Shown here: piece by piece, positions 8,444-64,000 of the stretch
Numbering within the stretch: the stretch's first letter is position 1
Layout of the letters: every line of letters starts with the position of its first letter
From: Dictyostelium discoideum
Taxonomy: Eukaryota
Reading direction: 5' to 3'
DNA length: 64,000 nucleotides
Assembly (NCBI GenBank): GCA_000004695.1
Contig: CM000153.2
Coordinates: 224,001 to 288,000 of the forward strand
The notes under the pieces: model-generated
Database searches by the model: none
The model's input: only the letters and a program-made list of their open reading frames with translations
What the model was told of the DNA's origin: nothing
Position numbers and translations under genes: made by a program

Positions 8444-10752
8444 TTATTTTCTAATTTCCCCATACCCCCTTCTATTAATTGCAACCAAATCAAGTTCTAA
8501 TTTTTGTGTCCTTGTTAACTTTGTTTTTGCAACTTTTTTTGAAGGTATCACATTAACGATTTTTCCTATTGATGGTGATTTGGAAGGTGATTTAAATGGT
8601 GATTTAAAAGGTGAATTGGAAGGTGATTTAAATGGTGAATTGGAAGGTGAAATGGATGGTGATTTGGAAGGTGATTTAAATGGTGATTTGGAAGGTGATT
8701 TAAATGGTGATTTAAATGGTGAATTGGAAGGTGAAATGGATGGTGATTTGAGAGGTGATTTGGATGGTTTAGAATGTGATTTTAAAGGAGGTTTATTAAC
8801 AATTGGTATCTTATGAGGACGGCCTCTGAGACGTTTAACAGTTGTTACTATACCACTACCAGATTGTGGTATAGTATACGATGGTATTATTTGCACTTGA
8901 GGTATTGGTGGTACTATTTCTTTTAAATTCATATCCTTTCTCAAACAATTCATTAAATTTGGCGCTGTTGGATTATTATTTAAAAATGGGAGTATTTCTT
9001 CTTGTTCCATTTCATTATTGAGTTTGTGTTGAAATGGATTATCGTTAATGATAGGTGGAATATTTGATGGATTGTTAAGAGCATCTTCCAAAACCCTAAA
9101 TGGATCATTTTGTGTTACCAATTGATGCAAGTTGAAATTGGATAAATCCTTACCAAGATTTTTAATAAACTGAACCAGAAATTCAATAACTTTCCCATCA
9201 TTATTTAAATAAAGACCAGAAGTAAAAGAATCAATATCTTTTTGTATGTTTGGCGATGTTCTAAAAATATCAACTGTTGATTGTTTATAAAGAACCAACT
9301 TGTTACCTCCTACAAAACCAGAGTATAAACCTTTTTTTTGAAGGCTATTGATTCCATCTTCCAAAAATTCAAGTTTATAAAGTTGTTTAGTGTCTTCCTG
9401 TATTACCTTATGAATTTTACACAAAATCAATATTTTCTATTAGAATTAAATATAAAATTTGTTAATTATTACTGTTTCATATATTATTAATCTTTATGTT
9501 TTAATTACTTACATTATTTTTTTTAATTTCTAGAAAGAGTACAGTATCACCAACTTTCAATCCCTTTGGTGGTTTTGAATTCCATTGATTTTGGTAACTT
9601 GTGAGATTTTCAAGAATAATAGCTGTTCTTTCTTCTTTTGAAACATCTGAAACACCAATTGATTGAGAGTCTTGTTCTGATTGAACATTAATAAACAAAG
9701 GAACAATACCAACAGCTTGAGATGGTGTCATTTTAATTGTTCTTGTTTTTGTATTATTGTAATCATACAAAGCTTGTTTTAATAGTTCAGAAAGAGACCT
9801 AGAAGTACCATCAAGAAAACTAAAATTTATTTATAAATGATTAATTAATAAACATATCGATAATTTATATTGTTCACAATATCATACTCTTGTTGTTTTA
9901 ATTTTGAGATCCTCTCCTTGATAGTTCGATTCAATCTTTCTACCATACCTTGAGTTGTTGGTGTACGAGGAGCTCCATGTGCTGACTTGGAGCCTGGAAA
10001 AAGTTTTAGGAATTCTTTTTGGACTTTGTTTTTAAATTCACGTCCATTATCGCAGTGCCATACTTTCACAGGTTTGCCAAAGTACGTGAGAGCCAAAAAA
10101 TTGTATATGGGAACTGTTCTCTTTGTTGTCAAACATCTAAAAAATAAATGATAATTAAAATAAAAAAAGAAAACTAATAAATTAATAAATAAAAAATAAA
10201 TACCTTCCAGTAGCAAATTTTGTAAAAGAATCTATGCATAGAATAATGTAAACAACATCGGTGTCGTACGGTTGTACAGAGTCATATTGGATAAGATCAT
10301 CTAGTTTAGTTAGTATCTTTTCATTATCATCATCGTATGTAACTTTTTCTTTATGTTCACCTTTAATTGATGTTAAATCATAAACCAATCTTGAGTATTC
10401 CTCGGTATCTACAATTGGAGCAAAATCCTTTGTTATACCTATTAATTTATTTAAATTATTAAAAGAGTTTTAATATAAAAGTTACAAAACATCATATAAA
10501 AATGATTGATACCAAACCTTTTATTCTATTTCGTTGGCAAATGTCACACGTATCTACTGCATCAGATACAAAAGAATACAATCCCATATTATAATATTTA
10601 GTCTTGTAGTTCCCATAGGTTGCATCTCTTCCTATATGACCTTTATGCATTTCTTCCCAGAGTGATACCATTCTATAATCATTAATTACTTCTAAACACA
10701 CTTCTTTTGATATATTTCTATCTCCGCCACAATTCATGACTTTTTTTTTCAA
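8444..10752 (-). CDS. integrase-derived gene of the chromovirus (Ty3/gypsy, Skipper-like) type: HHCC zinc finger, DDE catalytic core, C-terminal GDxV/SH3-like region, chromo-like segment, AT-hook (RGRP) and SPxK repeat tail; at least 5 exons
   Basis: HIGRDATYGNYKTKYY...CDICQRNR is the HHCC finger. DTDVVYIILCIDSFTKFATG plus WHCDNGREF plus AHGAPRTPTTQGMVERLNRTIKE is the DDE core. ALYDYNNTKTRTIKMTPSQAVGIVPLF and LKVGDTVLFLEIKKNN form the integrase C-terminus. EFLVQFIKNLGKDLSNFNLHQ is chromo-like. RLRGRPHKIP is followed by an (SPxKSP)n tail. Three in-frame introns were verified by hand (gtttgg...taatag at ~10400-10490, gtattt...tttttag at ~10140-10205, and gtatga...ttttag at ~9790-9860), plus a GTAAGT donor at ~9519. 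Confidence 0.6.
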
Positions 10753-11689: not shown

Positions 11690-12349
11690 ATGAAATTTAT
11701 TTTATTATTTTTATTTTTATTTAATATATTTTTAATTGTATCATCACGTCAAGACGTATTTAAATTAAAAGCAAAGGGTTGCGATAGTAATACATTAAAT
11801 TTGAATGAATGTGGATCATTTTGTAATAAATATGCAAAAATCCAGAACGATGGAAACAATAAAAAAATCACATTCTATACAGATCTGTATTGCCGAACCA
11901 TTGGTAACTATCTTAACACAGACACTCCTTTTATTATTCCATTTAATTGCAATAATGAAATTAATCGTCTTGCATATGATGGGGAAGTTTCTTGTTCAAC
12001 ATTAAATCCAAAATTTAATTCTTTCAAATTTGTTAAAGGTTCTTGTGTCGATGATAAAAATGTTACAATTGGTTTATGTTCATCAGTATGTGGTACAAAT
12101 ATTAAAATCAATTATGATCCTTTCCAAAATTACTCTATTTCAACCTACACTTCTAAAGATTGTACTGGAATTGGAAGTACTGAGTCCTATGGTTCAATTG
12201 ATTGTAAGAATGATTTACTTTCAAAAGCTAAAAACAATCAATATTTATCTTGCTCCGAATCATTACCAGATTCTTCAACATCATCAAAATTAATTTCAGG
12301 CTATAATATTATATTATTGGCATTTTTATTAATAAGTATATTATTTTAA
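11690..12349 (+). CDS. small cysteine-rich secreted protein with a C-terminal hydrophobic GPI-type signal (219 aa, single exon)
   Basis: ATG start, signal peptide MKFILLFLFLFNIFLIVSS, about 18 Cys residues, and a terminal ...SSKLISGYNIILLAFLLISILF. A ponticulin-like family assignment is possible but was not verified. Confidence 0.6.
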   Translation: MKFILLFLFLFNIFLIVSSRQDVFKLKAKGCDSNTLNLNECGSFCNKYAKIQNDGNNKKITFYTDLYCRTIGNYLNTDTPFIIPFNCNNEINRLAYDGEVSCSTLNPKFNSFKFVKGSCVDDKNVTIGLCSSVCGTNIKINYDPFQNYSISTYTSKDCTGIGSTESYGSIDCKNDLLSKAKNNQYLSCSESLPDSSTSSKLISGYNIILLAFLLISILF

Positions 12350-12740
12350 AATAAAATAAAATAAATAAAATAAAATAAAATAAAATAAAATAAAATAAAA
12401 TAAAATAAAATAAAATAAAATAAAATAAAATAAATAAAAAAATATAAATTAAGAAAAAACATATTAAAGTCCATTAGTAATCCAATATTATAATATATTT
12501 AATCAAAAAAAAAATGTTTAGGAAAAAAAAAAAAAAGTTAATAGATTTTCAAATAAAATAATTCTCTGATGTTGTTATTGTTTAAATATCTTAAATTATT
12601 CACATTTATTAATTAAATCTTAAATAAAAATTAAAAAAATTGAAAAAAAACATAATATCAATTTATTTAATAGAAACAGTTCAAACATATTGTGATTTTT
12701 TTTTAAGATTTAATTAATAAATGCTAAATTTAACAGCAAA

Positions 12741-45910: not shown

Positions 45911-48275
45911 TCAATGCCCATTCTTGTTCACTCCATTACCATTAGTATGACCATTATTATTTATATTATTGTTATTATTATTTATATTATTATTATTATT
46001 AAGATTTATATTTGAATTTGAAGTTTTAATTGGTAAACCTTTTTTTTGTCTAATAAATAATTTTAAAAGTTCTTGAAAATCTTTAATTGGAGAAGAAGGT
46101 TGTAATAATTTAATGAATTGATTGATAACTTCTTGAGAGACATTTAATTTTGGTAAAAGGATAGTATTCATATAGGTTAAGAATTCATCACCATACTTTT
46201 GAGCGATGGCTCTTAGGGATTTACCAATTTCCAAGAGAATTTGAGTTGAAGTGAAATCAGACATATTGAATTGATCAGATAGGGGTACTTGGAAGCAAAG
46301 GGGTACCACTTGATCATAGATAAAACTTTGGAAACCATTTACAGCATGTGGACCACCAGGAGAATAATCGTCAATCATTTTCTTCAAAATGACAAAACAA
46401 ACCTTTTGAATGGACTCTGAATGACTGCCACTAGCTTGACAACCACCAATAACTGTATTGAAAACCTGTTGAAATAGTAAAGGTAAATTGAGGGTTGAAG
46501 TTAGGGTAGAAGCTAAATTATGAGTAAACAAAGCTTGAATCAATTGGAAATAAGATTTCTTCAAATCATTTAACGCTCTTTCGGCATCTGAATGCTCGAC
46601 GGGTGGGATTGTGGTATTCAAAGATTTGTAAATTCTATCAACGATTGGACAAAGTGTTGGATTGATGACATCGAATAGCTCCTCTTTATACTTTGAGATT
46701 AGTTGATTGTAAAACACCAAAAACTCCAACAATATGTCTATCGTAGTTGCATGGTCCAATAGGATGGGCAAGATTTTCACTAACAATGGCTTCAAATCCT
46801 TTCCCAACACATCCACCATACGATGCATATAAAAGAAGGTTCTAGACTTGATATCCTCATTTGAGGGTATCAACGAGGGCAATTGAATGATCGACTCTAA
46901 CGAACGCTTGAAATAAACCTTATAGGTGCAATAGGCGTCGGGCTTCAACTGACCATTTGTAGCATTGAACGAGCTGAAACCCTTACTAAACGTACCAATC
47001 ACATTGATCAACTGAGTCAACTGAACTGTATAATAGAATTGATTCTCCTTTGTGTCACCTTTATATAACTGTTTTGCAATGATCTCCTCCATCTTTATAA
47101 TTGGATTATTTAATATCTTTTCAATATACAATGCCTCCTTCTCAATGGGTAAATTTGCACCACCAATTAAAAATCCTAATGATTCATAAAAATTCAATTG
47201 TTCTTCGAATGGCACCTCTTTTTGAATTTCATATGAAATGATTAAATGATTCTTCAAGGCATCAATGATATCATTAATGTATGGAAACATTTGAACTTTC
47301 AAATATTTTGCCAACTTATTTAACAAATAACCAGCTTTACTTCTAACCAAAGCATCCTTATTATGAATACCTCTTTCATCCAAGAATGATTTTAAAACTG
47401 ATGATAGATATTGTTGTTCATCCATTGGTATATACTTTGCATATCTAACAATAGTTTCAAAATAAATTAATGAAACAACTTGATGTTCTGTAATTGAAAT
47501 TGAACTTTGTGATAAAACTACAACCATTGAACCAAAGAATTTCTCAAATGATTTTAATGTTTCCTCTGATGTTGCTGATATACCTTCACCCATTTGAAAT
47601 AATAAATAAATTGAAACTTCAATATCTGAAAATGACATATCATCATCATCCTCCTCATCCTCATTATTATTATTTTTAATATTATTCGCATTTTTAACAT
47701 TATTTTTATTTGTATTATTATTATTATTATTAGTCGTATTATTATTTATATTATTTGTATTATTATTTATATTATTCGTGTTGTTGTTGTTATTATTATT
47801 CGTTTTATTTATATTATTATTTATAGTACCATTTTTACTATTTGTCGTATTTTTATTTTTATTATTATTATTTTTATTTTCTACAATTCTTTGAATATTT
47901 GTCGCTATAAAACTACCAACCATTTCTGGACAAATCCTAAATATATTTCTAAATAAATTTGATAAATCTTTTCTAAAATCTGCAAATTTAATATCACTTT
48001 CATCATCATCCTCTTCAATTCTACTTGTTTTATATCTCATTTTATTTCTAACTATTTGAACCAATAATGTAATATGTTGAATTTGTTTTTCATTTAAAAC
48101 TTTAATATTCTTTAATTTTTGAACATAAAGTGATGCTAAACCATAAACTGAATATGAAACATCATTCGATTCATTATTAAAGAATCGAAATAATAATTGT
48201 AACATCTCCTCTAATAATATTTCACCACTTTGAAATTTTTTATCAAATCCTTCTTGTTGTAATGTTTGAATCTAA

Positions 48276-48312
<37 letters not shown>

Positions 48313-49800
48313 TAAATATAATAATTATTAGTATGATTGATAATGATAATGATAATGATGATGATGATGATGATGATTAATTAATTAATTAATTAATTAA
48401 TTTATATAAAACTTACAGATTCTAAACTTCTTAAAATTTCCATACCAGTTAAATTAATTAAAGCACCAACTCTAATATTAAATTCTTGATCATCTAATTG
48501 AGCAAAATTAATGATATTTTTAATTTCCAATTGTTGAATTAATGTTAACTTTGCGAATGGATCCATACCTTTGTTTATGATCTCTTTGAAACAATCACAA
48601 ACTTCATCTCTAACAACTCTAACACCAAGATATTTACAAAATAATGGAATGAATTTATCATTAACAATCAATGAAATATCAATCCAACCAACATATGTTT
48701 TAATATTTTGTAATGTCATATTAATTAATGGTGGTGATTGATGATGAACTAAAATTTCATACCATGATGCTACAATCTTTGTAATTGCATTCTCTCTCAT
48801 TGTATCTTTCTATAAATATATAAAATAAATAATTATTAATATTAATAATTATTATTATTATTAAAAAAAAAATAAAAAATAAAATAAAAAATAAAAAATA
48901 AAAAATAAAAAAAAACCTTACAATAAATGTATTTTGAGCTAATTCAGCAGGACTTCTATGAACATCAAATGAAACAACTTCTTCATCAATTGATTTACAA
49001 ATTCTTAAGAAAATATCAATTGATGAATTACCTGGGCTTAACATTGATAAGAAATCATCAAAAAATGTTAACCAATTCTCCAAATACTCTTGTTTAAATA
49101 ATAATACCATAACTTGTGCATATTTATTTTTGATTGCTATAATAAAATTTAAAAATTTTAAAAGTTAATATAATAATTAAAATAAAAATAAAAAAAAATG
49201 TAGAAAGAAAAAAAAAAGGAAGTACAAGGTGACGTAAAAAAAAAATAAAAAAAAAAAATTTCGATTTTTTTTTTTTTATTTTTTTTTCGAAAAAATTTTT
49301 GCATAGGGAAAATATGAGAGAAAGTTTATAAACTTACCAGATTCTTCTTGATTGTTTACTAAATAAAGTCTGAACCAATTCATTAAACCTGTTCTTAAAT
49401 TTAATCTATCTGTTTTGCTTAATGTTTCATATCTTTTTTGAAAAAAATAAAAAATAAAAAAAAAATAAAAAAAGTGTATAAAAAAGTTAGAAAATTTATA
49501 CATTATTATAAAATGAATGTGAAATAATGTATAAAAGAATAAAAAAAAAAAATAAAAAAAAAAAAGATGATAATTATAATAAAAAGATAATAAATACCTA
49601 TGTAAGATAATTTCTTGAAAAACTTGTAAACAAAAGAATTTGACTAATACAATTTGAGTTTTTCCCAATCTTTCTAAACAAAATAACCATGCTTCTGGTG
49701 CAACTTTAATTGATTCTGTGTATGCTAATGCCTTTTGTTTAATGTCTTCTGAAACATTTGGATCAAAACAATAGATGATTGCTTTTTCAAATTCATCCAT
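45911..49800 (-). CDS. xpot: exportin-T (tRNA exportin, Los1/XPOT family); 5 exons (~49608-49800, ~49338-49430, ~48945-49135, ~48418-48806, 45911-~48273)
   Basis: The sequence is collinear with human XPOT. MDEFEKAIIYCFDPNVSEDIKQKALAYTESIKVAPEAWLFC...VKFFCLQVFQE aligns to the XPOT N-terminus. FLRICKSIDEEVVSFDVHRSPAELAQNTFIKDTMRE aligns to YLRILMAIDSELVDRDVVHTSEEARRNTLIKDTMRE. WIDISLIVNDKFIPLF, VRDEVCDCFKEIINKGMDP and FETIVRYAKY also match. The introns have GTAAGT/GTATTT/GTAAGG donors. A poly-N insertion sits in the large exon. Confidence 0.85.
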
Positions 49801-49901
49801 TTAGATTTTATTTTTGTTTTTTACTTTTTTATTTTTAATATATATGTGTGTGTGTTGTTTCTTTTATTTTTTAATTATTTATATTAATTATTTATATTAA
49901 A

Positions 49902-49935
<34 letters not shown>

Positions 49936-50075
49936 GGTATTCCCTTTTTTTAAAATTTATTTTTTTATTTTTGGGGGGGGGGGGGGAAAAAAAAAAAAAG
50001 GGTTAAAAAAAAAAAAAAATATTAAAAAAATTAAAAAACTGTTTGTCGGTCGTTGTAGTAAAATTTTTTTTTTGG

Positions 50076-50112
<37 letters not shown>

Positions 50113-51078
50113 CAAAAAAAAAAAAAGCAAAAAAAAAAAAAAAAAAGGAAAAAAAGCAAAAAAAATTAAAATAAATTTTGAGAAGATAATTGTGAAAAAT
50201 AAAAAAATAATAAAAAAAATAATAATTAAAATAGAAAATAAATAAAAAAAATTAAAAAAAAAAAAAAATAAAAAAAAAAAAAGAAATTAATAATAATAAT
50301 ATAATAGTATAATAAATTTTCTTCCAAAAGTTTAAGTTTTTATTAAATTTAATTGCTTAATTATTTTTAGTAGTGCTATATGATTTTAAAAAATTTTATT
50401 AATTCACAAAATAAAAACAACATGTTATTTAATTTAGTAATAATTTGTATAATATTATATAAAAAATTATGATGTTTAATAATTTTTTTATTTTTTTTTA
50501 ATAATAATAATAATAAAAAAAAAAAAAAAAAAAAAAAGATACAATTTACCATCAATGAATTCAAGTGTTATTAGTACTACAACTATTTCAAAATCAATTA
50601 TCGTCATTTTAAAATGAGAAATAAAAAAAAAAAAAAAAAAAAAAAAAAATATCTTTGAAAACATTTTATATATTAAGATTTTTATTTTATATAGATTTTT
50701 TATTTTTAATTTTTTTTATAAAAATAAGAAATCATTCTAATAATATGAATTTCATATTTTTCTTTAACAAACAAATCTTCCAATTAATGTATTTTTGGTT
50801 TAAAATCTATTTTTGAGTCAACATCACTGATTGAGTCAATTACATTCTTTTTTTTTTTATTTTTTTTTTTTTTTTTTTTTTTTATTTTCAGAAATTGATT
50901 TTCTTTTTTTTTATTTTTTTTTATTTTTTTATTTTTAAAATTTCAAAAAAACAATTAAAAACGATAACTTTTTTTTTTTTTTTTTAATTTCTGTGTGTTT
51001 TTTAATTTAAAAAAAAACTTTGTTTCTTTTTCACACTATTTTTTAAATAATAATTTACTATATATAAAATAAATAAAA

Positions 51079-51497
51079 ATGTCAGGTCAACAAGAATTTG
51101 GTAAAATTATTGATGGTAAAGAGATATCAAGTCAAGTTAAAGAATCAATTAAAGATGAAATTACATTAATGAAAGAGAAAGGATTAAGAGCACCATGTTT
51201 AGTTGTAATTTTAGTTGGTGATAGAAAAGATTCACAAACCTATGTTAGAAATAAGAAAAAGACAGCATCAGATTTAGGTATTAATTCAATTGATATCCTC
51301 TTACCAGAACAAACTACTCAACAAGAATTAATTGATTTAGTTCAATCTTATTCTAAAAAAGATGATGTTGATGGTATTTTAGTTCAATTACCATTACCAT
51401 CTCATATTAATGAAGAAATTATTTTAGTAAGTCCCCCCTCTCTCTCCCCCTCTCCCTCTCTCTCAAAATAATAATAATATTAATATTTTCATTTTTA

Positions 51498-51588
<91 letters not shown>

Positions 51589-52215
51589 GTTATGTATAGA
51601 CCCAAATTGATGAAAGTAAAGATGTTGATGGATTTCATCCAGTTAATATTGGTAAATTAGCAATGAGAGGTAGAAAAGCAGATTTTGAACCATGTACACC
51701 AAAAGGTTGTATTGAAATGTTAGATAGAAGTGGTATTGAAATCGCTGGAAAGAATGCTGTTGTATTGGGTAGATCAAATATTGTAGGTTTACCAGTTTCA
51801 ATGTTATTATTAAGTAGAGATGCTACTGTTACAATTTGTCATTCAAAAACTCCAAGTATGTGTGTGGTGTTTTTTTAAAAATTTATTTCCAATCTATATA
51901 AAAAAAAAAAAAAATACTAATATTATTATTTATTGTTTAGATTTAAAAGAAAAATGTAGAGAAGCAGATATTTTAGTTGTTGCAATTGGTAAAGCAAAAT
52001 TAGTTAAAAAAGATTGGGTTAAAACAGGTGCTGTTGTAATTGATGTTGGTATGAATACTGATGAAAATAATAAATTATGTGGTGATGTTGATTATAATGA
52101 AGTTAAAGAGGTTGCAAGTTATATTACACCAGTACCAGGTGGTGTTGGTCCAATGACAATTGCAATGTTAATGAAAAATACTCTTGAAAGTGCAAAAAAG
52201 AAATTATTAAAATAA
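51079..52215 (+). CDS. methylenetetrahydrofolate dehydrogenase/methenyl-THF cyclohydrolase (FolD/MTHFD family); 3 exons 51079-51426, 51600-51855, 51941-52215
   Basis: The protein reads [83 protein letters not shown] and [26 protein letters not shown] donor ends exon 1 and a GTATGT donor ends exon 2. Intron 1 contains a (TAT)n tract. Confidence 0.9.
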
Positions 52216-52429
52216 AATAAAATAAAATTAATTTCAAAAAATAAAATAAATTTTTTAAAAAAACAACACCTTAGACATAAAATAATCTCAAACAAAACCT
52301 TTTTAAAAAATGAAAAAAAAAGATTTAATTTGAGATATTATTTTTTTTTTTAATTCATTTATGGGGGTTTGAATTTAATTAAAAAAAATGTTCAAAAAAA
52401 TATTTTTTAAATCAATTTGATTTTTTTAT

Positions 52430-52640
52430 TTAAAATCATTAACAAGGGGGTATTAATCAATATTAAAATATTTTTTAAAGGGTTTGATAAAATACAAATT
52501 TTTTTTTTTTTTTTTTGTAAATTAACAAAAAAGTACTAAAAATAAATGAAGCTTACAACCCATTGATTATAAACAAACCAAAATATTATTTTATTATAAT
52601 TTAATTTTTTTTTTTTTTATTTAAATTTGTATTATGAAAA
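52430..52640 (+). repeat. copy A of a dispersed ~200-bp repeat (copy B at 57225-57440), ~80-190 bp upstream of a plus-strand gene start
   Basis: ...gggtttgataaaatacaaattttttt...aaattaacaaaaaagtactaaaaataaatgaagcttacaacccattgatt...aaccaaaatattattttattataatttaatttttt...atttgtattatgaaaaaaa matches 57270-57440 at about 80% identity. Confidence 0.8.
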
Positions 52641-52712
52641 AAAAAAAAAGTATAAATTAATAAAGTTTTTTTTTTTTTTTTTCATTTTTAAAACTTTAAT
52701 TAAAAAAAAAAA

Positions 52713-54420
52713 ATGAATAAATTATTAGTTTTTATATTATTATTGTTATTATTAATTAATATTTCTTTTGCAAGAAAAAGATCATACATTAAAAACACAG
52801 ATGCTTCAATTGTTGTAACTCAATTTGGTGCAATTAAGGGTATTGTTGAAGATACTCATCGTGTATTCTATGGTGTTCCATTTGCTCAACCACCAGTGAA
52901 CCAATTAAGATGGGAAAATCCAATTGACTTAAAGCCATGGGAAAATGTTAGAGAAACTTTAACCCAAAAATCACAATGTGCTCAAAAATGTAATCTTGGT
53001 CCAGGTGTTTGCTCTCCAATTGGTACTTCCGAAGATTGTTTATATCTTGACGTTTTTACTCCAAAAGATGCCACACCAAATTCAAAATACCCAGTAATTG
53101 TTTATATTCCAGGTGGTGCATTTAGTGTTGGTAGTGGTTCTGTACCTCTTTATGATGCTACTAAATTTGCTCAATCATCAGTAATAGTTGTTAATATTAA
53201 TTATAGATTAGGTGTTTTAGGTTTTATGGGAACTGTAAGTTTTAATATACATTATTAATATATGTGTAATTTAATAAATATATTAATACCTATTATTTTT
53301 TTTATTGTTATTATCTCTTTTAATTATTAAAAAGGATTTAATGCATGGTAATTATGGTTTCCTTGACCAAATTAAAGCATTAGAATGGGTTTATAATAAT
53401 ATTGGTTCCTTTGGTGGTAATAAAGAAATGATTACAATTTGGGGTGAATCTGCAGGAGCCTTTTCAGTTTCAGCTCATTTAACATCTACCTATTCAAGAC
53501 AATATTTTAATGCTGCCATCTCATCATCATCACCATTGACTGTTGGATTGAAAGACAAAACAACCGCCAGAGGTAATGCTAATAGATTCGCAACAAATGT
53601 TGGTTGTAATATTGAAGATTTAACATGTCTTCGTGGTAAATCAATGGATGAAATTCTTGATGCCCAAGAAAAAGTTGGACTTACCTTTGGCGATAAAATT
53701 CTAGATGCTTTTACTATTTGGTCACCAGTTATCGACGGAGATATCATACCAATGCAACCATTAACCGCTGTAAAGGAAGGTAAAACATATGATGTTCCAA
53801 CCATTATTGGAAATGTAAAACATGAAGCTATCCCATTCATTTATTCATTTTTCCAAGATAGTGTTGGAATCGATTACTATAGAGTTCTCGTTGCTATTGT
53901 TTTCCCATTGAATGCTATGAAGATTTTACCATTATATCCAGCCGCTCCAAGAGGTCAAGATTCAAGACCAATTTTATCTGAATTAATCACTGATTATTTA
54001 TTCAGATGTCCAGATAGATATCATACCGTTACAAATGCCAAAAAGCTTTCATCCCCAACCTATCATTACCATTATGTTCATGTAAAATCAACTGGTCATT
54101 CATTGGATGCCTGTGATGATAAAGTATGTCATGGTACCGAATTATCACTATTCTTTAATAGCTATGAATTAATGGGTGAAAGATTGGATAATGATGAAAA
54201 GGAATTAGCTATTGATATTAATAACTATATAGTTAACTTTGCAACTACTCATAATCCAAACACTGGTTTAGATGTACCAGTCCAATGGAGACAAGTCACT
54301 TCTACTCAAAACTCAACTTTAATTTTGGAAACAACTATTGAAACTAAAGATACTTTTACAAATGATCCAAAATGTAATGCTTTAGATTTGACTTACTATA
54401 GAAATCAAGTTAGACCTTAA
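52713..54420 (+). CDS. secreted carboxylesterase/cholinesterase-family (type-B) esterase, 2 exons (52713-~53235, ~53345-54420)
   Basis: It has a signal peptide [20 protein letters not shown]. Family motifs are GVPFAQPPV, EDCLYLDVF, VIVYIPGGAF and the nucleophile elbow GESAGA. A GTAAGT donor follows ...LGFMGT and the acceptor is aaaaag|GATTTAATGCATGGTAATTATGGTTTCCTTGACCAA. Confidence 0.85.
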
Positions 54421-54622
54421 ATAATAAAAAAATTAAATTTAATTTTTTAATTAAAAAAAATAATATAAATAAAATTTTTTATATTTCATTTTATTTATTT
54501 ATTATAATTTCTTATGTAATCAAAAATAATAAAATTAATTAGTATTATTTTTTATTTTTTATTTATTTTTTTTAAAAAATTAAAACGATAAAAAAAAAAA
54601 AAAAAAAAGTGTAAAAACTTAC

Positions 54623-54754
54623 ATCATGAGTACCATGTGAAAAGTTGAGTCTACAAACGTTCACACCAGTTTCAATTAATTTAATTAAAGCTTCTTCACT
54701 CATTGTTTTTGGACCAATTGTACAAACAATTTTGGTTCTAACAAACACTTTCAT
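54623..54754 (-). pseudogene. pyk: orphan pyruvate kinase first exon (44 codons: ATG ... FSHGTHD|gtaagt) with no downstream exons present
   Basis: [44 protein letters not shown] is the canonical PK N-terminus ([10 protein letters not shown]...NVARLNFSHG), followed by a GTAAGT donor. The minus-strand downstream region 54421-54620 is AT-rich non-coding. 52713-54420 is the plus-strand esterase and 51079-52215 is FolD. Confidence 0.55.
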
Positions 54755-55293
54755 TATAATTTTATTTTATTTTTTTTATTTTATTTTTTAATTTTAATTT
54801 TTAGATATTGATAAAAACACAAAAGAAAAAAAAAAAAAAAAAAAATATTTTCGTTTTTATTTTCTTTTATTTTTTTTTTAGTATTATATAAAAAAAAAAA
54901 TAATTTAATTGTTTTATTTTTTTATTTTTTTTTTTATTTTTATTTTTGTTTTATTTTTATTTTTTTTTCATTTTTTATTTATTTTTATTTATTTATTTTT
55001 TTTAATATCAAAAATAAAATATCCTCTCGTTATTCTTTAAAATAAAATATAAAAAACAAATTTAGTTTTTGATTGAAAAAAAAAAAAAAAATTAAATAAA
55101 ATTAAATAAAGTTTTTATTTTTTTATTTATTTTTTTAAGACTGACTTAAATTGAGATTATTTTTATGGAAATAATTATTCAGTTGGATAAATTTCAAAAT
55201 ATTCAATGGCATACTTATGATGAATGATTTATTTTTAAATTAGTACAACTTTTTTTTAATCAATGTAAAAATATTGAATAATGTAATATAATT

Positions 55294-55960
55294 ATTATAA
55301 TACTTCTCTAAGTTCTTCACGTGTAATACATTTGTCATCATCAGAATCCACATCTTCAAACATTGAGTTGGCCAAGACTTTAGCTTGAGCTTCATTTGAA
55401 CCACTAGTAATGAAATATTGTCTGGCCTCATCCCAAGTAATTTTATTATCTTTATTTGAATCAGCCTATAAAATTTTATTTATTTTTTTATTTTTAAAAA
55501 TATTAAATTTCAATTACTATGTTTTTATGGGAAAGATTAATATTTATATATTTAATATATATATATATATTACCTTAAAAATAATATCAACGAATTTTTT
55601 TAAACAAGTTTCAGCTTCAATAATATAATCTACAAGTACTGCAGTTTTAACTTCATTAACCGAAAGTTTTCCATCTTTGTCAAGATCAAATAGTTCAAAT
55701 AATGAATTGGTTGCCAAAGTTGGGTTTGGGTATTTGCATTTCTTGTACATGTCATTAACTTCTTTCTTTGATAATTGGTTATCACCATTTTTATCAGCTG
55801 CTTTAATTGCTTCATTCTTTAATTTAAAAATATAAAATAAATTTTTTTTTTTTTTTTTTTTAAACGTTAAAAAAGTTTAACATATTAGTTAATAAATATT
55901 TAAACAACACTTACTGTTGCATTTGTTAATTCTTCAAGAAATTCCTTTTTAGTAACCATT
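55294..55960 (-). CDS. EF-hand calcium-binding protein (~150 aa), 3 exons (~55914-55960, ~55575-55819, 55294-~55464)
   Basis: Assembled by hand: [15 protein letters not shown] | [60 protein letters not shown]...IIFK | [18 protein letters not shown]...[57 protein letters not shown] and [14 protein letters not shown] are EF-hand loops. The donors are GTAAGT and GTAATA. Confidence 0.75.
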
Positions 55961-57224
55961 TTTAATTCTTTTTTTTATGTTTAAGTTAATTTGTTAATAA
56001 AAAAAAAAAAAAAAAATTAATCTTAAATACTTTTTTTTATTTTTTTTTTAAAAAATTATTAATAATTTATAATTTTTTTAATACCAATATTTTGAGCAGT
56101 TTGGCAGTTCAATTGTTTACCAAGATACAAATTTAGATTAAAAAGTGTGAAGTAAAAGGGTTGAATTTTTTTTTTTTTTGTAAAATTTTGATTGGGGTGT
56201 GGGAAATAAAAACAGTTTTGTTTTTTTTTTTTTTTTTTTTTAATAATATGGTATGATTTGATTATCAAGACTAAAAAATAGAACCACAGTCACCCCAATC
56301 AATAAATTTAAATAAAATAAAAAAATAAAAATATAAGAACCCACACCAAAAATAAAAATTATTTTAATTCCCATTTTTTTTTTTTTTTATTTTTTCCAAA
56401 TTATATTCATTTTCTAATTTTTTACCCATTTAAAACAGTTTAAACAGTTTTCAAAATCACAAATCACCAATTGAAAACCTAATGGATCTCAATGAGGGTG
56501 GGTAAGAGTGTTTAAACATTTTTTTTTTTTTATTTTTTTTTTTTTATATTTTTTATTTCCTTATATTGATTTTGTTTTTTTAAATTTAATTATTATTTTT
56601 TTTTACAAATTGATTTTTTTTATTATTTTATTTAAAATTATGTTGAATTTATGATTTTATATAATTTTATAATAACAATCTTAACTTCACCACTTTAAAT
56701 CTAACAGATATATATATAAAAAAATATATTTTTTTTTGAAGTTTTTTGTAAAAATACACTTTAAATAATATTTATGGCTGGTAATTAAAAATGAAAATTC
56801 TTTTTCTTTAATTTCTTTATTCATTTAACTACAATGAAATTTATTATCAAAAAAAAAGAAAAAGACCTAAATAGCAAGCTTATAACTTGTTTATTATATA
56901 ATATAATTTATTCTAATGTATATCAATTGATGGTGGCGTAAAAACTGGTTATAATGTATTTTGAAGACTATTTTTATAAAATTCATGGGATTAGTTAAAG
57001 ATAAAGATATTAAATATTAATTTTCATTTTTTTGATTATTTTTTTTTTTTTGTTTTTACCTTCTTGATTGTTTTAAATTTTTTCACACCCCAAAACTGTT
57101 TTCCCCATTATTAACCACACAAAAAAAAAAAAAAAAAAAAAAAAATTAAAATTACCAAATTACAAATTACAAATTAAACTCCCAAATCAAAAAAGGATTT
57201 TATTGGTAATGTTTCATTTTCCAA

Positions 57225-57440
57225 TAACAATGCCTTGATTAATTTTTAATCATAATTTTTTATTTTTTTGGGGGTTTGGTGAAATACAAATTTTTTTTTT
57301 ATTTATTTTTTTGAATTAAATTACAAAAAAGTTCTAATAATAAGTGAAGCTCACAACCTCATTGATTTTAAAAAACCAAAAAATTATTTTAATTTTAATT
57401 TTATTTTATTTTTTTAATTTGTATAATGAAAAAAACAATT
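57225..57440 (+). repeat. copy B of the dispersed ~200-bp repeat (see 52430-52640), ~310 bp upstream of the 57753 ATG
   Basis: ggtttggtgaaatacaaattttttt...aaattacaaaaaagttctaataataagtgaagctcacaacctcattgatt...aaccaaaaaattattttaattttaatttt...atttgtataatgaaaaaaac. Confidence 0.8.
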
Positions 57441-57651
57441 CTATTGTTTTCATTTATTATACCATTTTTTTTAATTAGAAGAATACAAAAATAAATTTTT
57501 TGAGATCTAATCTTAATAATTTTTAAAACCAATTTTTTTTATTTGGAACTTTGGTTAAAAACCCAATCAGTTTCAGATTTAATCTAAAAAATTCTTCAAT
57601 TACAATTTTTAACTGACTCCCAATCCATTTTTCATTTAATAGCCAATTATT

Positions 57652-57692
<41 letters not shown>

Positions 57693-57752
57693 ACAAGAAA
57701 AATTATTATTATTTTAATATTATTATTGTTAAACAATAAATCAAATTAAAAA

Positions 57753-58121
57753 ATGACTTTATCAGTGGAACAAATTTCAAAATTGGAGGAGTCTAAAATA
57801 AGAGCCAAGAAAGTGTATGAAAATTATGATGAAAAATTAAATAATTTTTTAAATGAACAATTGGTTGAATTAAAGAAACAAAACAACTCAATTTCAAATT
57901 TTAGTGAGAATGAAATTAAAGATTTGAAAATTTCATTCCAATCAATTCAATCTGAAAAAAGTGCCAATGAACTTTACAGTGAATTCCCATTTGAAGAAAT
58001 GTGGGCAATAATGGGTCTTGCATTGAGTGCTGATCCATCAGGTGTTGCTCCAATTATTTTCGGTGCTATTAATATTCTTTTTAATAGTCTCGGTTTATTT
58101 AATTCCCAAGAAAGATTGTAA
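57753..58121 (+). CDS. hypothetical 122-aa protein (may be exon 1 of the 58275 gene)
   Basis: ATG start. The N-terminal half is a coiled-coil-like, K/E-rich segment. The C-terminal stretch is hydrophobic (MWAIMGLALSADPSGVAPIIFGAINILFNSLGLF). The stop overlaps a possible GTAATT donor, and the acceptor ttttag at ~58260 would join in frame to FFKQIMEAVEK.... Confidence 0.4.
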   Translation: MTLSVEQISKLEESKIRAKKVYENYDEKLNNFLNEQLVELKKQNNSISNFSENEIKDLKISFQSIQSEKSANELYSEFPFEEMWAIMGLALSADPSGVAPIIFGAINILFNSLGLFNSQERL

Positions 58122-58274
58122 TTACTTAAAAACAATTAAAATAATAATTAAAAAAAAAAAAATATATTTAAAAGAACTAATATAATAAATTTAAATTTTT
58201 TTTTTTTTTTAAAATAATAAAAAAAAAAAAATTAAAAAAAAAAAAAATTTTATGGTTTTAGCTTTAAACAAATA

Positions 58275-59095
58275 ATGGAAGCAGTTGAAAAATTAATTGA
58301 CCATAAGTTAAGTCAAGAAAGAGAGAGACAATGTATAATTAAATTCCAACAACTTCAAAAAACTGGCGATGACTATTTTGTATTAGCTGAAGAATATTTT
58401 TCAAGAAATGGAAATAAAAATGTTAGTCGTAGTATTATTCCAAATGATATTCAAGTAATGACTAATGAACAACTTAATTCTTCACTTCAATTTCAATTAA
58501 TGATTTATCGTGATAAAATAACTGATGGTTTAATTTATTTTAAGGAAGAAAGTGAATTAGTAAGTTTTTTAATATTAATTCATTTATTATTAAAAAAATT
58601 TTTATTAATTATTCTTTTTTTAAAAAAAAAAAATAAAAATAAAATTAATAAAAAAAAAAGATTAATACCATTGGTTTTTATATTTTAACAGCTTCACAAT
58701 ATCTTTGTTTACAAAGAGATTGTCATCTTTATGGTAAAGAATGGGGTTTCAGTGATTTTGATGTTGAAGATGCAAAAAAAAAAATTCATGATTATACAAT
58801 AGAATTTTTTGAAATCACTGTTAAATCAGGTTGGAAACTTTCCCGTCATATGCATAGCGAAGAAACTTCCCCAATTTTTGGTTATTATAGACCACCATAC
58901 TTTGATGTTGTAAGAAAATTCAAAAATGCAGACTTTACCTATTATCCTCATAGAGCATTTGATTACCAAAGAAATGTTGGTGAAATTCATTTTAATTGTG
59001 GTGATGAAAGAGGTTCCCATTTACTTTACCCAGGTTTAATTGTAGGGTTTTCTCAAGTTACCAATAGTTTATCTTCTGGGTTTAAAGTAATTTAT

Positions 59096-59133
<38 letters not shown>

Positions 59134-59546
59134 TAAAATTTATATTAATTTATATTTTTATTATTTATTTTCCAATAAAGGGACTTACCGCAGGAACTTT
59201 AAATTTACAAGTAACTTTGATTGTAAAGTTTGAAAGTATTAAAAAAAGATCATTTAAAGTTAAGATACATCATCATATTAATGGCAATGCTACGTGGGTT
59301 GTTGAAAGTGGTCCTGTCTCAGAAGTGTTAAGTTTTAATCAAGGTACTGAAAAAGAATTTAGAAACTCTTACTTTGTTTATAATGAAAGTTTGCAAAATC
59401 CACCACATGCTACTAATGAATCCAAGCTTATTACAGTAGAAAATGAACAAGTCACATTTAAATGTATTAGATCTATGAATGGTGGTACAAAAACTGGGTA
59501 TGATGCAGGTTCAAAACTATATTTAATTGAACTTATTTTTGATTAA
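58275..59546 (+). CDS. hypothetical protein ~360 aa, 3 exons (58275-58559, ~58661-59088, ~59180-59546), beta-rich C-terminal domain of unknown family
   Basis: ATG-MEAVEKLIDHKLSQERERQCIIKF...EESEL is followed by a GTAAGT donor. Exon 2 reads INTIGFYILTASQYLCLQRDCHLYGKEWGF...HFNCGDERGSHLLYPGLIVGF...SGFK, followed by a GTAATT donor. Exon 3 reads GLTAGTLNLQVTLIVKFESI...TFKCIRSMNGGTKTGYDAGSKLYLIELIFD*. Confidence 0.5.
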
Positions 59547-59813
59547 TTGGAAACACAAATGGCCTCTTGGTTGTAGATTGATTTGATGATGTACTCATAC
59601 ATCCTATTAAGTCCTATTAAACTAAAAATAAAATAATAAATTTAACTTTTGGCACTTTTTTTGAAATTGTTGTGAAAAAAAAAAAAAAAAAGTTTTACAC
59701 ATATTAAATTATTTAAATTATAATAGTAAATAATAATAAATTATTTTATTATTTTATTTTTATCGTGTTGTTTTTTTTTTTTTTTTTTGAAACATATATA
59801 TGGGTGTTTAATT

Positions 59814-60771
59814 TTAAAAGATATCAATTTTAACACCTTTACCATTCCAAATGTAAGTACCTGATGAACCAGAAGAACCAGATGTATAAGATGGACCATC
59901 TGATGAATCTGGGAATGAATCAGATTGTGAACCTGCTGTGGTGGTTGTGAATGAATCTGATCCTGATTCAGATTGTGATTGTGATTGTGATTGTGATTGT
60001 GATTGTGAGCCAGATTCAGATTGTGAGCCAGATTCAGATTGTGAATGTGAACCAGATTCAGATTGTGAGTGTGAACCGTGATGACCAGAGGTTGCATGTG
60101 ATGATGATGATGTTGATGGACCTGTTGTATGACCACCACCAGTTGTTGATGCGTGAGTGGTAGATGGACTTGTTGAACCACCACCAGTGGTAGAGGTTGT
60201 GACGTGAGATGTTGAACCACCACCAGTGGTAGAGGTTGTAGCATGGGATGTTGAACCACCACCAGTGGTAGTTGTAGTTGTTGGAGTTGGATAACCAACA
60301 TAAAAACCAAAATTAGCAATAACATTCTTTAATGGGACAGTATTATTATAAACTGCTTGAGTTACGTATGTTGCACCTTTGAATAAACTAACTACATTAT
60401 CACAACTACTCATTTTAACTAAGAATTTATCATTATAAACTGGTAATGATTTACAAATTACTGTGTTTTGACCATTCATTTGTTCAACAAAACTTAAACT
60501 AATAATACCTGGTGATACAGATGCTTGGAAATCCATTGCTTCAGCATTTGAAATCCATGGAATTGAATTTTGAATAACAAATCCTGTACCTGATCCTTGT
60601 GGTACACTAAATGTTGAGAAATTTGAAACTACTGATGTTGCAGTTCTTGTTAATTTAACAATGGTTTTACTTCCACTATTCTCTTCCCATTTCATATAAT
60701 ATGCAATACTAATATCTTGTGGTTCAACATTTAATGCATAAATTGAAACTGTTAAATTTAAATTTCCCCTA

Positions 60772-60812
<41 letters not shown>

Positions 60813-61242
60813 TTAGATATTTTTAAAATCAAAATCTAAAAATCTCTCACTTTTGGGAAAAAAAAAAAAAAAATGGTGGGGGAAAATTGATTTTTTTTTT
60901 ATATACATACGAAATTTGAACTAAATATGGTGATGGGAAAACTAATTGATTTTCAATATTTGAAGCAGTGAATGATACAATTTTTCTACCACTACTTGTG
61001 AAATCAATTGTGCATGTAGAAATGAAGTTATGGTTAAAAGCTTGATTTGATGTTTTATTTAAAATGACAACTTGGACACCTTCCAAATTAAATGATGATG
61101 CTGGAAGTGCAATATTTGAAAAAGTTTGACTAACAAATTTACTTTTTGAAACTAATCCAAAATCAACTATGTTTGAAAAAACATCCTTTTAAAAAAAAAA
61201 AAAAAATTTATTAATGTTTGGAATTTTTTTTAAAGTAGAAAG

Positions 61243-61283
<41 letters not shown>

Positions 61284-61337
61284 CATACAGCATTGATTAA
61301 GGAGATTAAAGAAATAACAATAAATAATAAAGAAAGA
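59814..61337 (-). CDS. secreted protein with a Thr/Gly/Ser-rich mucin-like linker and SQSE/SQSQ repeats; 3 exons (~61281-61337 signal peptide, ~60920-61192, 59814-~60780)
   Basis: Exon 1 reads ATG-MKTLSLLFIVISLISLINA, then a GTATGT donor. Exon 2 reads DVFSNIVDFGLVSKSKF...SPYLVQI, then a GTATGT donor. Exon 3 reads SGNLNLTVSIYALNVEPQDISIAYYMKWEENSGSK...TTTTGGGSTSHATTSTTGGGSTS...SQSESGSQSQSQ...IWNGKGVKIDIF*. Confidence 0.6.
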
Positions 61338-61385
61338 GTCTTCATTCTTTGTTTTTTTTACAGATAGTCACAGATATTATTGAAG

Positions 61386-61425
<40 letters not shown>

Positions 61426-61638
61426 GTTTTAAAAAAAAAAAAGAAAAAAAAGAAAAAAAAAAAAAAAAAAATAATCCCCTGATATTTTTAAATTTCCGAC
61501 CTTTGACCTTTTAAAATTGAACCCCTGGTAATCACTTAAAAATTAATACCAAAAAATTTTAAAAAAAAAAAAAAAAACTATTATCATTTTCTTTTTTTAT
61601 TACTACTTTTCATTTAATAAAGATCATCTATAAAAGTA

Positions 61639-61674
<36 letters not shown>

Positions 61675-62154
61675 AGTTATACATTTTTAATACCAAAAAA
61701 AAAAATAAAAAATAAAAAATAAAAAATAAAAATGATGACAAAAAAATAAATTTCAAAATATTAGATCCAACAAGCAAATATGGCAACATTTATAATTTAC
61801 AAATAATCAAAAAAAAAATAAAAATGAATAAAAAAAAGTATATATTTGCATATAACCCAATAGTATTTATTTTATTTTAATTTAATTATTTTTTTTTTTT
61901 TTTAATAAAATTCATTATTATGAAATATCGCATATTAAAGATTTCACTATAATTTTTAGTATATTAACGTGGGTACCAATTTTTAAACAAATTTTAAAGA
62001 CAACCTTTATTTTCGATAAGTGGGTGTACCAAGTGAACTTTATATAAAAAAGTAACAATCCTTAAAAATTGATTTTTTTAAATTTTAATACAAACTGTTT
62101 TGAAAAAAAAAAAAAAAAGTAAAAAAAAAAAAAAAAAGTAAAATTTTTTAGAAG

Positions 62155-62185
<31 letters not shown>

Positions 62186-62559
62186 AAAAAAAATATTACA
62201 ATAAATTAAATCATTAAATTAATTATTAATAAAATATCCTTTTACATGTAAATATTCATATATTTTAATTTTTTTTTTTATTTTATTTTGTTTTTTTTTT
62301 ATTTTTATTTTTATTTTTATTTTGTTTTTTTTTATTTTTTTTATTATTTTATTTTTTTTTTTGAATTTTTTTTATTTTTATTTTTCATTTTTTTATTTTT
62401 TTTTTTTTATTTTATTTTTTTAATTTTTATCCAACAGTTATAATTTTTTTATTATTTTTTTTTTTTTAAAAAAAAATAACAAAACTCATTAAGATAAAAG
62501 AAAATATATAAATTATTATAAAAAAAAAAAAAAAAAAAAAAAACAAAAAAAAAAAAAAA

Positions 62560-62591
<32 letters not shown>

Positions 62592-63109
62592 AAATATCCA
62601 AAGAAATTCAGGGTATAAAAAAAAAAAAAAAAACAAAATAAAAAAAAATTAGAAACACCAATATGTGGAGTTTAAAATATAAGAACATAAAAAAATAATA
62701 AATAAAATAAATAAAATTCTTTTTTTTTTTTTAATACTATTTACTTAAACTTTTACATATACCTAAAACATACTCAAGTTTATACAAAACATAAAAAAAA
62801 AAAAAAAAATGGAAAATGGTATGCTTTTTTATATTATTTCATAATATAGGGCATCATTTTTATAATGATTTTATCGTATTTTTATATTAATACATTTTTT
62901 AATTTTAAACTTCTATATTTAAATTTTAAACTTTTTTATTTTTATTTTTATTTTAATTTTAATTTACTTTCCTTTTTTAATTTATTTTTTTCTTTATTTT
63001 TTTATTTTTTTTAATTTTTAATTTTTTATTTATTTATTTATTTATTTAATTATTTATTTATTTATTTTTAAAATAATCAAATAAATAAAAAAAAAAAGAT
63101 GAAAGAGCT

Positions 63110-63490
63110 TCATTAATAAATAATAATTATGATAGTGCTGAAAATGAAAGTGATTTTATTAATGAAAGCTTAGATAACAATAGTAATGAAACTTTTGAAG
63201 TGAATGGCAGTGGAAGAATTAATAATTATTACAATTTAATTAAAACTCCATCAATATCATCATCACCCCTAATTGAATCATCATTATCCTATCAAAAACA
63301 ATCACCACCGCCACAAGAAAAACCACCAGATACTCAACTACCATCATTACAAGAACAACAACAAGAACAACAACATCAACAATCACAAGAACAAAAACAA
63401 CCATCACAAGAACAAGAACAACAACTTCAAGAACAACAACCTACAATATTTAAAAGAATGTGGGATCTCTTTTTTTCTTCATCGCCTCCA

Positions 63491-63565
<75 letters not shown>

Positions 63566-64000
63566 TTAAATAATAATATAAATAATAAAAAAACCGATAA
63601 TAGCCCTATTAATAGAAATTTAAACTCATCTATGGAATTTGTAGATGAAAATCAAAAACATATGAAAGAACAAAGAAATGATGATGATGAGGCTTCATCG
63701 TCATCATCAGCATCATCATCATCGTCATCAAGATTCAGGCAAAATAATAATAATAATAATATCAATAATAGTAACAATAGAAACAATAGTATAAATAATA
63801 GTGATCAAGAGAGAGAAAAGGATCACGAGCAAGTGAATAGAATATATGATTTATTCTTTTCATTATCAGCAATAGGTAATGATGAAGACAATGATGACGA
63901 TGATGATGATGATGAAGGAGAAGAGCAAGATGATAATAGAATATATAAACAAGTAAATAAAAAGAATGTAAATAGAACAAATATAAAATATAATAATTTA
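63110..64000 (+). CDS. partial ORF (runs off the window end) encoding an N/Q/D/E-rich low-complexity protein with a repeated R(M/I)(W/Y)DLFFS motif
   Basis: One open frame with no stop from ~63110 to the window end: ...QEKPPDTQLPSLQEQQQEQQHQQSQEQ...TIFKRMWDLFFSSSPP(N)n...EQVNRIYDLFFSLSAIGNDEDNDDDDDDDEGEE.... No in-frame ATG was identified, so the start probably lies in an upstream exon. Not in the ORF track. Confidence 0.3.

Follow-up and report, generated by a model that had tools for sequence, protein, structure and literature searches.

Genes that are co-regulated in Dictyostelium development can carry conserved upstream blocks, such as the GBF-bound G-box and CA-rich elements and the upstream homologies of the discoidin I family, and small RNA genes can carry the Dictyostelium upstream element (DUSE), the consensus of which is WCCCAYAA. 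Short upstream sequences present in two places may also come from partial, promoter-only duplications in tandem gene clusters or from MITEs (miniature inverted-repeat transposable elements), and thug-S, a known small element of Dictyostelium, has been described as an intron-containing DNA transposon (PMC4894637). We compared these systems with a locus in a 64,000-nt stretch of Dictyostelium discoideum DNA (GCA_000004695.1, contig CM000153.2, positions 224,001 to 288,000 of the forward strand; hereafter, the window), which is composed of A+T by ~78% and contains spliced genes. An initial annotation of the window had pointed out a dispersed repeat of ~200 bp upstream of two plus-strand genes, an esterase gene and a hypothetical gene, and had proposed it to be either a shared cis-regulatory module or a member of a small family of non-autonomous repeats with insertions close to promoters.

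The repeat probably consists of upstream promoter DNA from a D2-type carboxylesterase gene, present as two paralogous copies, of which copy A would be the native promoter and copy B lies in front of a neighbouring gene for a protein with an N-terminal delta-endotoxin domain (endotoxin-like gene). Segment 1 of the duplication is represented by A1 and B1 and segment 2 by A2 and B2, A1 being a far-upstream A segment found only at the locus of a second esterase, DDB_G0276969 (Table 1). At the level of annotation, this turns the hypothetical gene into a delta-endotoxin-domain gene and the repeat into esterase promoter DNA. The spliced translation of the esterase gene in the window was identical to UniProt P18142, with COesterase as the precomputed Pfam assignment. 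D2 is the 56-kDa component of crystals enclosed in the endoplasmic reticulum (ER), is induced by cyclic AMP (cAMP) pulses at aggregation and is tightly regulated (PMC2116030), so that regulatory elements can be expected upstream of its gene.

Homology and extent of the repeat

In unmasked BLASTN, 52469-52643 and 57261-57435 formed an alignment of 182 columns with 82.4% identity (125 bits). Apart from self matches, the runner-up for the 421-nt query was a low-complexity match of 62 bits. The Smith-Waterman score of copy A against copy B was 65, compared with 14.7 ± 2.3 (maximum 24) for dinucleotide shuffles and 17.9 ± 3.5 (maximum 30) for a null distribution from 209 real AT-rich tiles of the window, and each of the two GC-containing cores had exactly two occurrences in the window, against chance expectations of 0.00 and 0.03. 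Thus, the repeat of about 80% identity suggested by the initial annotation was confirmed at ~82%, far above the AT-rich background, as were its two shared cores, the orientation of both copies on the + strand and the upstream distances, copy A ending 67 nt before the esterase ATG (52713) and copy B 313 nt before the ATG at 57753. The second core differs between the copies by a 1-nt insertion, ACAACC-CATTGATT versus ACAACCTCATTGATT. In the intervals originally given, 52430-52640 and 57225-57440 (~200 bp), the first ~35 nt have no homology to each other, and the in-register extent is 52469-52646 and 57261-57440 (~178 bp).

A third convincing copy was not found within the window with a profile built from the two copies, and a generic repeat finder, run on the whole window, returned low-complexity AT repeats only and nothing usable. 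A match at 56184-56297, possibly a third and very degenerate copy, was weak and not convincing (nhmmer with a 7-sequence profile, E = 1.6e-6 on the window, 11.6 bits, bias 27).

Compact, conserved GC-containing cores in very AT-rich DNA might also be expected of a non-coding RNA gene, namely a small structured RNA or a microRNA precursor present in two copies. The copies resemble DUSE-associated small RNA genes in having an ACCCA-like motif, ACAACCCATTG, in AT-rich intergenic DNA. They differ from them in that a search for WCCCAYAA within the two copies and close to them found no match, an insertion interrupts the motif in copy B, and there is no conserved foldable body, the + strand folding no better than shuffled sequences (z = +0.43 and +1.47). 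Furthermore, no Rfam family reached its gathering score anywhere in the window, and no tRNA was found there. An RNA gene is thus hardly probable at all, and we return to the esterase promoter as the source of the repeat.

Immediately beyond the end of A2, the TATA box of the esterase begins 4 nt past the repeat, and the ATG follows 31 nt after the T17 run, in keeping with TATA plus oligo(dT) as the usual layout of Dictyostelium core promoters. The AAAAAGTATAAAT sequence of this core promoter was kept in D. cf. discoideum, D. citrinum and D. firmibasis.

The larger duplication and the two paralogous loci

For comparison, ten loci were used in addition to the window, together ~250 kb of dictyostelid DNA. 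They include the DDB_G0276969 locus of D. discoideum (L004, chr2-type) and, from the same assembly, a sequence 99.3% identical to window 47722-64000 (L010), together with sequences from a divergent D. discoideum strain (L007), D. cf. discoideum (L006), D. citrinum (L005), D. dimigraforme (L001) and D. purpureum (L003), and the crystal-protein (L008) and DDB_G0283087 (L009) loci. The esterase DDB_G0276969, encoded on a chromosome record of 8.48 Mb, is 99% identical to D2, the locus of which we take to be on chromosome 4.

L004 was collinear with the window except for a 2.2-kb piece, and it contained repeat copies at 9718-9939 and 12378-12571. Both copies are therefore present at L004 as well as at the D2 locus, so that a single genome contains four copies or more, distributed over two paralogous loci. 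L004 9389-9565, which lies farther upstream of its esterase, matched window 57079-57255, just upstream of B2, at 87%. Within L004 itself, A1 (9389-9543) and B1 (12168-12317) were 90% identical, and A2 (9779-9936) and B2 (12412-12564) were 83% identical. The homology of A1 to B1 and of A2 to B2 indicates that the duplicated segment is ~550 bp of esterase upstream DNA, of which copy B is without the central ~230 bp. Thus, the repeat noted as a unit of ~200 bp is real but belongs to a larger duplication, because B1 is esterase-promoter sequence too. Its A-side counterpart is missing in the window because the segmental duplication broke at 52276, the left breakpoint, which is 60 nt past the stop codon of the upstream THF-dehydrogenase gene.

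The gene order of the chr2-type locus, comprising COMM, AICARFT and ComC_SSD genes, the esterase gene, the endotoxin-like gene and Dus, is common to L004, L007, L006 and L005, indicating that this locus is ancestral and the D2 locus derived. In the history that we propose, copy A (52276-52646, with 52469-52646 as its repeated part) would be the native promoter, ~550 bp of which (about -610 to -65) would have been copied into the spacer upstream of the neighbouring endotoxin-like gene to give copy B, with the central ~230 bp of copy B subsequently lost or never copied. This duplication would have occurred on the D. discoideum branch, at about the time when it separated from D. cf. discoideum. 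A later segmental duplication of ~5 kb, carrying copy A, the esterase gene, copy B and the endotoxin-like gene, would then have gone from the DDB_G0276969 locus to the D2 locus, with A1 cut off at 52276. A remnant of local segmental duplication, which the initial annotation had set against both of its proposals, is what best describes the origin of the repeat, which lies within a longer collinear duplication.

This history resembles partial, promoter-only duplications in tandem clusters in that the collinear homology exceeds the conspicuous core, the parent copy is orthologous among species and the daughter copy limited to one lineage, both copies were taken to a second locus by a subsequent segmental duplication, and other partial duplications are found in the cluster of relatives. 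It is different in that upstream DNA only was duplicated here, stopping 4 nt before the TATA box and fronting an unrelated gene, and in that the A2/B2 part is conserved between the paralogous loci at the level of exons. It can be regarded as an ordinary by-product of a fast-evolving tandem cluster combined with segmental duplication, which is a known kind of event.

The 2.2-kb piece, which interrupts the otherwise collinear ~5-kb duplication and may have been either gained at the D2 locus or lost from the chr2-type locus, was absent from the chr2-type paralog and all other loci. In the esterase half of the duplication, L004 differed from the window by 0.4-1.1% in exons and 4.1% in the intron. 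In the endotoxin-like half, the divergence was mostly 3.3-3.6% in exons and up to 8.4% in introns, with only 0.3% in exon 2. This patchwork suggests unequal selection or gene-conversion tracts.

Table 1. Positions of the repeat segments, the genes next to them and the blocks of the segmental duplication in the window.
Feature	Position	Strand	Description
A-specific middle promoter part	52276..52468	+	second GGGGGTTTGAAT box and AAAATCATTAACAAGGGG; absent from copy B
Copy A2, distal D2 esterase promoter	52469..52646	+	GGGTTTGATAAAATACAAA, T18 run, GTACTAAAAATAAATGAAGCTTACAACCCATTGATTATAAAC, AATTTGTATTATGAAAAAAA; 82% identical to 57261-57440
Esterase core promoter	52650..52682	+	GTATAAAT (52650-52657), then TAATAAAG, then T17 run (52666-52682)
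D2 esterase gene DDB_G0283085	52713..54421	+	cAMP-regulated D2 protein, 535 aa; intron 53235-53334
2.2-kb D2-locus-specific piece	54513..56712	.	between the esterase and copy B
Pyruvate-kinase 5' fragment	54754-54623	-	44 codons, ends SHGTHD; Pfam PK, E = 4e-15
EF-hand gene	55959-55298	-	three exons; protein of 162 aa in the L010 gene call
Possible third, very degenerate copy	56184..56297	+	G-box GGGGTGTGGG, T-run, ACTAAAAA, CACCCCA; block order as in the repeat
Right-hand block of the segmental duplication	56713..59561	+	shared with the DDB_G0276969 locus
Copy B1, from the far-upstream esterase promoter	57040..57255	+	CACACCCCAAAAC, CCCCATTATTAACCACAC, A-run, ATTACCAAATTACAAAT
Copy B2, paralog of A2	57261..57440	+	ends 313 nt upstream of the endotoxin-like ATG
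T-run of ~30, then ATATAAAAA	57655..57695	+	likely core promoter of the endotoxin-like gene; conserved in L004, L006 and L007
Endotoxin-like gene, Q54RI3	57753..59546	+	484 aa; introns 58118-58261, 58560-58660, 59087-59180
Segment with GATAAAATACAAA plus T18			inside A2 or B2
Block collinear with L004 9561-11797	52276-54512		97.7% identity
Block collinear with L004 11797-12331	56713-57247		91% identity
Block collinear with L004 12360-14698	57249-59561		94.5% identity

Species distribution of the copies and cross-species motifs

Copy A was present upstream of the orthologous esterases in L007, in D. cf. discoideum (L006 9684-9933, E = 1e-25) and in D. citrinum (L005 9575-9957, E = 2e-19 with an extended profile), and short motifs of copy A persisted in D. 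firmibasis, D. dimigraforme and D. purpureum. Copy B was confined to the sequences labelled D. discoideum, namely the window, L004 and L007, and profile searches of the D. cf. discoideum and D. citrinum loci found no copy B. In D. cf. discoideum, the spacer between the esterase and its neighbour differs over ~800 bp, that is, as a whole, and it therefore does not offer a clean empty site for copy B.

In an alignment of seven sequences, the A copies shared one set of states and the B copies another, as at GTACTAAAAATAAATGAAGCTT (A) versus GTTCTAATAATAAGTGAAGCTC (B), and some of the B states, GGTGAAA, AAGTGAAG and GATTTTAAA, were in common with the A copy of D. cf. discoideum. Pairwise identity in segment 2 was 91-99% among A copies and among B copies and 80-84% between A and B. 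This sorting indicates a single duplication from an ancestral A copy, with no later homogenisation between A and B in segment 2, and the A/B duplication would accordingly appear to be older than both the strain split and the duplication that produced the two loci.

The distribution also bears on the second proposal of the initial annotation, according to which the ~180-bp unit would be a non-autonomous transposon, similar to a MITE or a short interspersed nuclear element, that inserts near promoters. Two copies in the same orientation upstream of genes are consistent with such a mobile element, and each copy contains an 11-nt inverted repeat, AATACAAATTT ... AAATTTGTATT. However, the homology passes this inverted repeat by more than 20 nt on the left and ~12 nt on the right, so that it is internal and does not mark the ends of a unit. 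No terminal inverted repeats were found at the unit ends, and the check for target-site duplications found none, nor any flanking direct repeats, at the ends of the homology. There was no hairpin beyond chance in either copy (z = 0.43 and 1.47). Furthermore, the copies lie within the longer collinear duplication of A1/B1 plus A2/B2, and copy A occupies an orthologous site in other species with ordinary divergence. No further copies beyond the two paralogous loci were detected in the ~250 kb covered, including the crystal-protein and DDB_G0283087 esterase loci, in which sharing of the module among related esterases was looked for and neither the repeat nor its motifs turned up. A scan of metagenomes for the core motif gave 0 matches, which is uninformative for a Dictyostelium genome. 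The repeat is similar to MITEs and thug-S in being short and AT-rich, in containing an inverted repeat and in lying near genes, and it differs from them in lacking terminal inverted repeats, a target-site duplication, a clean empty site and, in the DNA scanned, dispersed copies, the comparison with the intron-containing thug-S being based on its published description. Judging from the ~250 kb covered, a mobile element is very improbable, and the repeat, as a piece of esterase promoter copied next door, is probably an ordinary local duplication.

The esterase promoter contains blocks that are conserved among D. discoideum, D. cf. discoideum and D. citrinum when the upstream regions are aligned. 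They include blocks of the A-specific middle, which are conserved in the latter two species and correspond to the ~230 alignment columns missing from copy B. In a motif search of ~210 kb on both strands, CCAAATTACAAA was found only upstream of esterases (in D. discoideum, D. cf. discoideum, D. citrinum and, at -119, D. purpureum) and in B1, and CATTGATTwTAAA only upstream of esterases (including that of D. dimigraforme at -24) and in B2. TACTAAAAATAA was located upstream of esterases in four species, with just two other matches in unrelated places. These three blocks and the TATA block recur at D2-type esterases in 3-5 species, copy B retaining 2/3 blocks. D. firmibasis keeps a part of the block order, consisting of the G-box, the T-run, TACTAAAAATAAA.GATG and ATGAAAAAAAAGTATAAAT. 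No 7- or 8-mer with at least three G/C was common to the esterase upstream regions of at least four species, and the cross-species sharing is limited to longer AT-rich blocks, which were picked by eye and then searched. CCAAATTACAAA, TACTAAAAATAA, CATTGATTwTAAA and the G-box plus T-run, as well as the block CATTGATTTTAAA, are candidate cis-elements of the cAMP-pulse-induced D2 promoter.

The likeness to co-regulated developmental promoters of Dictyostelium lies in the GGGTTTG, GGGGTGTGGG and CACACCCC boxes followed by long T-runs and in the cross-species blocks. The difference is that the sharing between A and B derives from one duplication and not from independently maintained sites. The proposal of a shared cis-regulatory module is supported in part, in that the repeat is promoter DNA with cross-species motifs and both copies are more conserved between the paralogous loci than their flanks, but the sharing itself came about by local duplication.

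The MEF2-type MADS-box consensus, CTA(A/T)4TA(A/G), is fitted by CTAAAAATAA at 52534-52545 in copy A and by CTAATAATAA at 57332-57343 in copy B. The site in copy A was conserved in four species. Because this pattern is common by chance in AT-rich DNA, it serves as a lead only.

Relatives have further rearrangements in the same cluster. In D. dimigraforme, which has three esterases in the order esterase, esterase, endotoxin-like gene, esterase, the next gene, which encodes a 917-aa ComC_SSD protein, begins with a second copy (85-95%) of the endotoxin-like gene's upstream region and first ~120 codons (L001 7250-7363/12998-13115 and 7605-7664/13142-13201). This is another duplication of a promoter plus 5' exon in the same cluster. 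In D. purpureum, which has two esterases, a 600-bp copy of the 3' part of the endotoxin-like gene (81%) is located upstream of the first esterase (L003 2734-3341/8985-9593), indicating that the tandem unit there consisted of the endotoxin-like gene plus an esterase. Judging from these comparisons, the gene cluster is generally unstable.

Divergence of A2 and B2 and the endotoxin-like gene

Between the paralogous loci, substitutions amounted to 1.7% (3/176) in A2 and 1.1% (2/179) in B2. The values were 0.3-3.6% in exons, 2.4-8.4% in introns, 6.2% in the spacer, 5.7% in B1, 4.7% in the A-specific middle and 5.1% in the segment from B2 to the T-run. Thus, A2 and B2 were at the level of exons, whereas the flanks of B2 diverged by 5-6%. 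When A2 and B2 were pooled, 5/355 positions were substituted, compared with 81/1449 (5.6%) in introns, spacers and B1, which represents a ~4-fold lower rate (Fisher, p = 0.0004). The comparison of L004 with L007 pointed in the same direction, more weakly, with 9.9% for B1 and 8.0% for B2 against 15.6% for the intron of the esterase gene and ~12% for the alignable flanks, the neighbouring spacers having large indels and being mostly replaced or deleted. These data provide moderate evidence for constraint of the repeated segment at both positions, and we somewhat favour the view that purifying selection maintains both A2 and B2 as functional cis-regulatory DNA.

Several points weigh against this view and against the history proposed above. 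The signal of constraint depends on a very small number of substitutions within short stretches of AT-rich DNA, where the alignment of homopolymer runs is uncertain, and short gene-conversion tracts could be the cause of the low divergence between the loci. B2 of L004 has insertions of 10 nt and 6 nt, one of which splits the GGTGAAATACAAA core, A2 of L007 has a 16-nt deletion that removes CATTGATTATAAAC, and the TACTAAAAATAA block reads TTCTAATAATAA in all B copies. The identity between A and B is ~90% in segment 1 and ~82% in segment 2, and these different apparent ages may reflect gene conversion or a two-step history. In addition, the ~250 kb covered by the copy count, consisting of the 64-kb window and the ten loci, compares with a genome of 34 Mb.

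Some of these points would fit copy B being a neutral relic, that is, a dead remnant such as the promoter left behind after the deletion of a second tandem esterase, which is similar to copy A merely through recency. The cluster is full of partial duplications, D. dimigraforme retains tandem esterases before its endotoxin-like gene, and in D. cf. discoideum and D. citrinum the endotoxin-like genes manage without copy B. Copy B carries indels and has lost the TACTAAAAATAA block, and B1 has diverged between the paralogs at a neutral rate (5.7%). On the other hand, B2 has only 2/179 substitutions against 5-6% in its immediate flanks, with A2 behaving likewise (pooled p = 0.0004), and B1 and B2 are intact in three D. 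discoideum-labelled sequences in which the adjoining spacers have been replaced or deleted. There is also no trace of esterase coding sequence after B2, and no homology of the spacer to anything else was found. We consider a relic unlikely on balance, and retained regulatory DNA remains our preferred explanation of A2 and B2.

The gene downstream of copy B had been described as hypothetical. A gene is indeed present there, but the open reading frame that had been called is the first exon of the gene for Q54RI3. A four-exon splice model gave a product exactly matching EAL65892.1/Q54RI3, in which Pfam Endotoxin_N was detected with 29.2 bits (E = 1e-6), and a protein search with the 122-aa first exon gave no match. 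The segment at 57655-57695 is likely to be its core promoter, as judged from its T-run. Endotoxin_N genes are among the candidate horizontal transfers in Dictyostelium (PMC3188802).

If B2 is functional, copy B could possibly confer some of the aggregation-stage, cAMP-pulse-dependent expression of D2 on the endotoxin-like gene, although we put this forward tentatively. A stronger version, in which B2 is a recently captured enhancer that places the endotoxin-like, probably horizontally acquired, gene under the D2 programme and in which the conservation of A2 and B2 reflects selection for co-expression, appears rather improbable. If true, it would represent a datable case at the species level in which the duplication of a promoter rewired regulation, and D. 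cf. discoideum and D. citrinum would serve as natural controls without copy B. The arrangement, with four copies in one genome and sister species without copy B, amounts to a natural promoter-capture experiment.

The endotoxin-like gene adjoins D2-type esterases in D. discoideum, D. cf. discoideum, D. citrinum, D. dimigraforme and D. purpureum (window 57753-59546, L001 7304-9233, L003 7796-9527 and L004 12899-14683). A Cry-toxin-like gene is thus placed beside an esterase that forms ER crystals in a conserved pairing.

Within the 2.2-kb piece, the pyruvate-kinase fragment stops at a GTAAGT splice donor, with no further exons before the 3' end of the esterase, and it looks like a truncated gene fragment. 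The EF-hand and pyruvate-kinase sequences of this piece had no match in the other loci, and TATATA-like sequence is found at its junction. The divergent intergenic region of 1.8 kb from the EF-hand gene to the endotoxin-like gene contains classic-looking G-box and CA-rich elements, GGGGTGTGGG at 56188-56200 and CACACCCCAAAAC ... CCCCATTATTAACCACAC at 57083-57125, the latter of which are part of B1 and thus derived from the esterase promoter.

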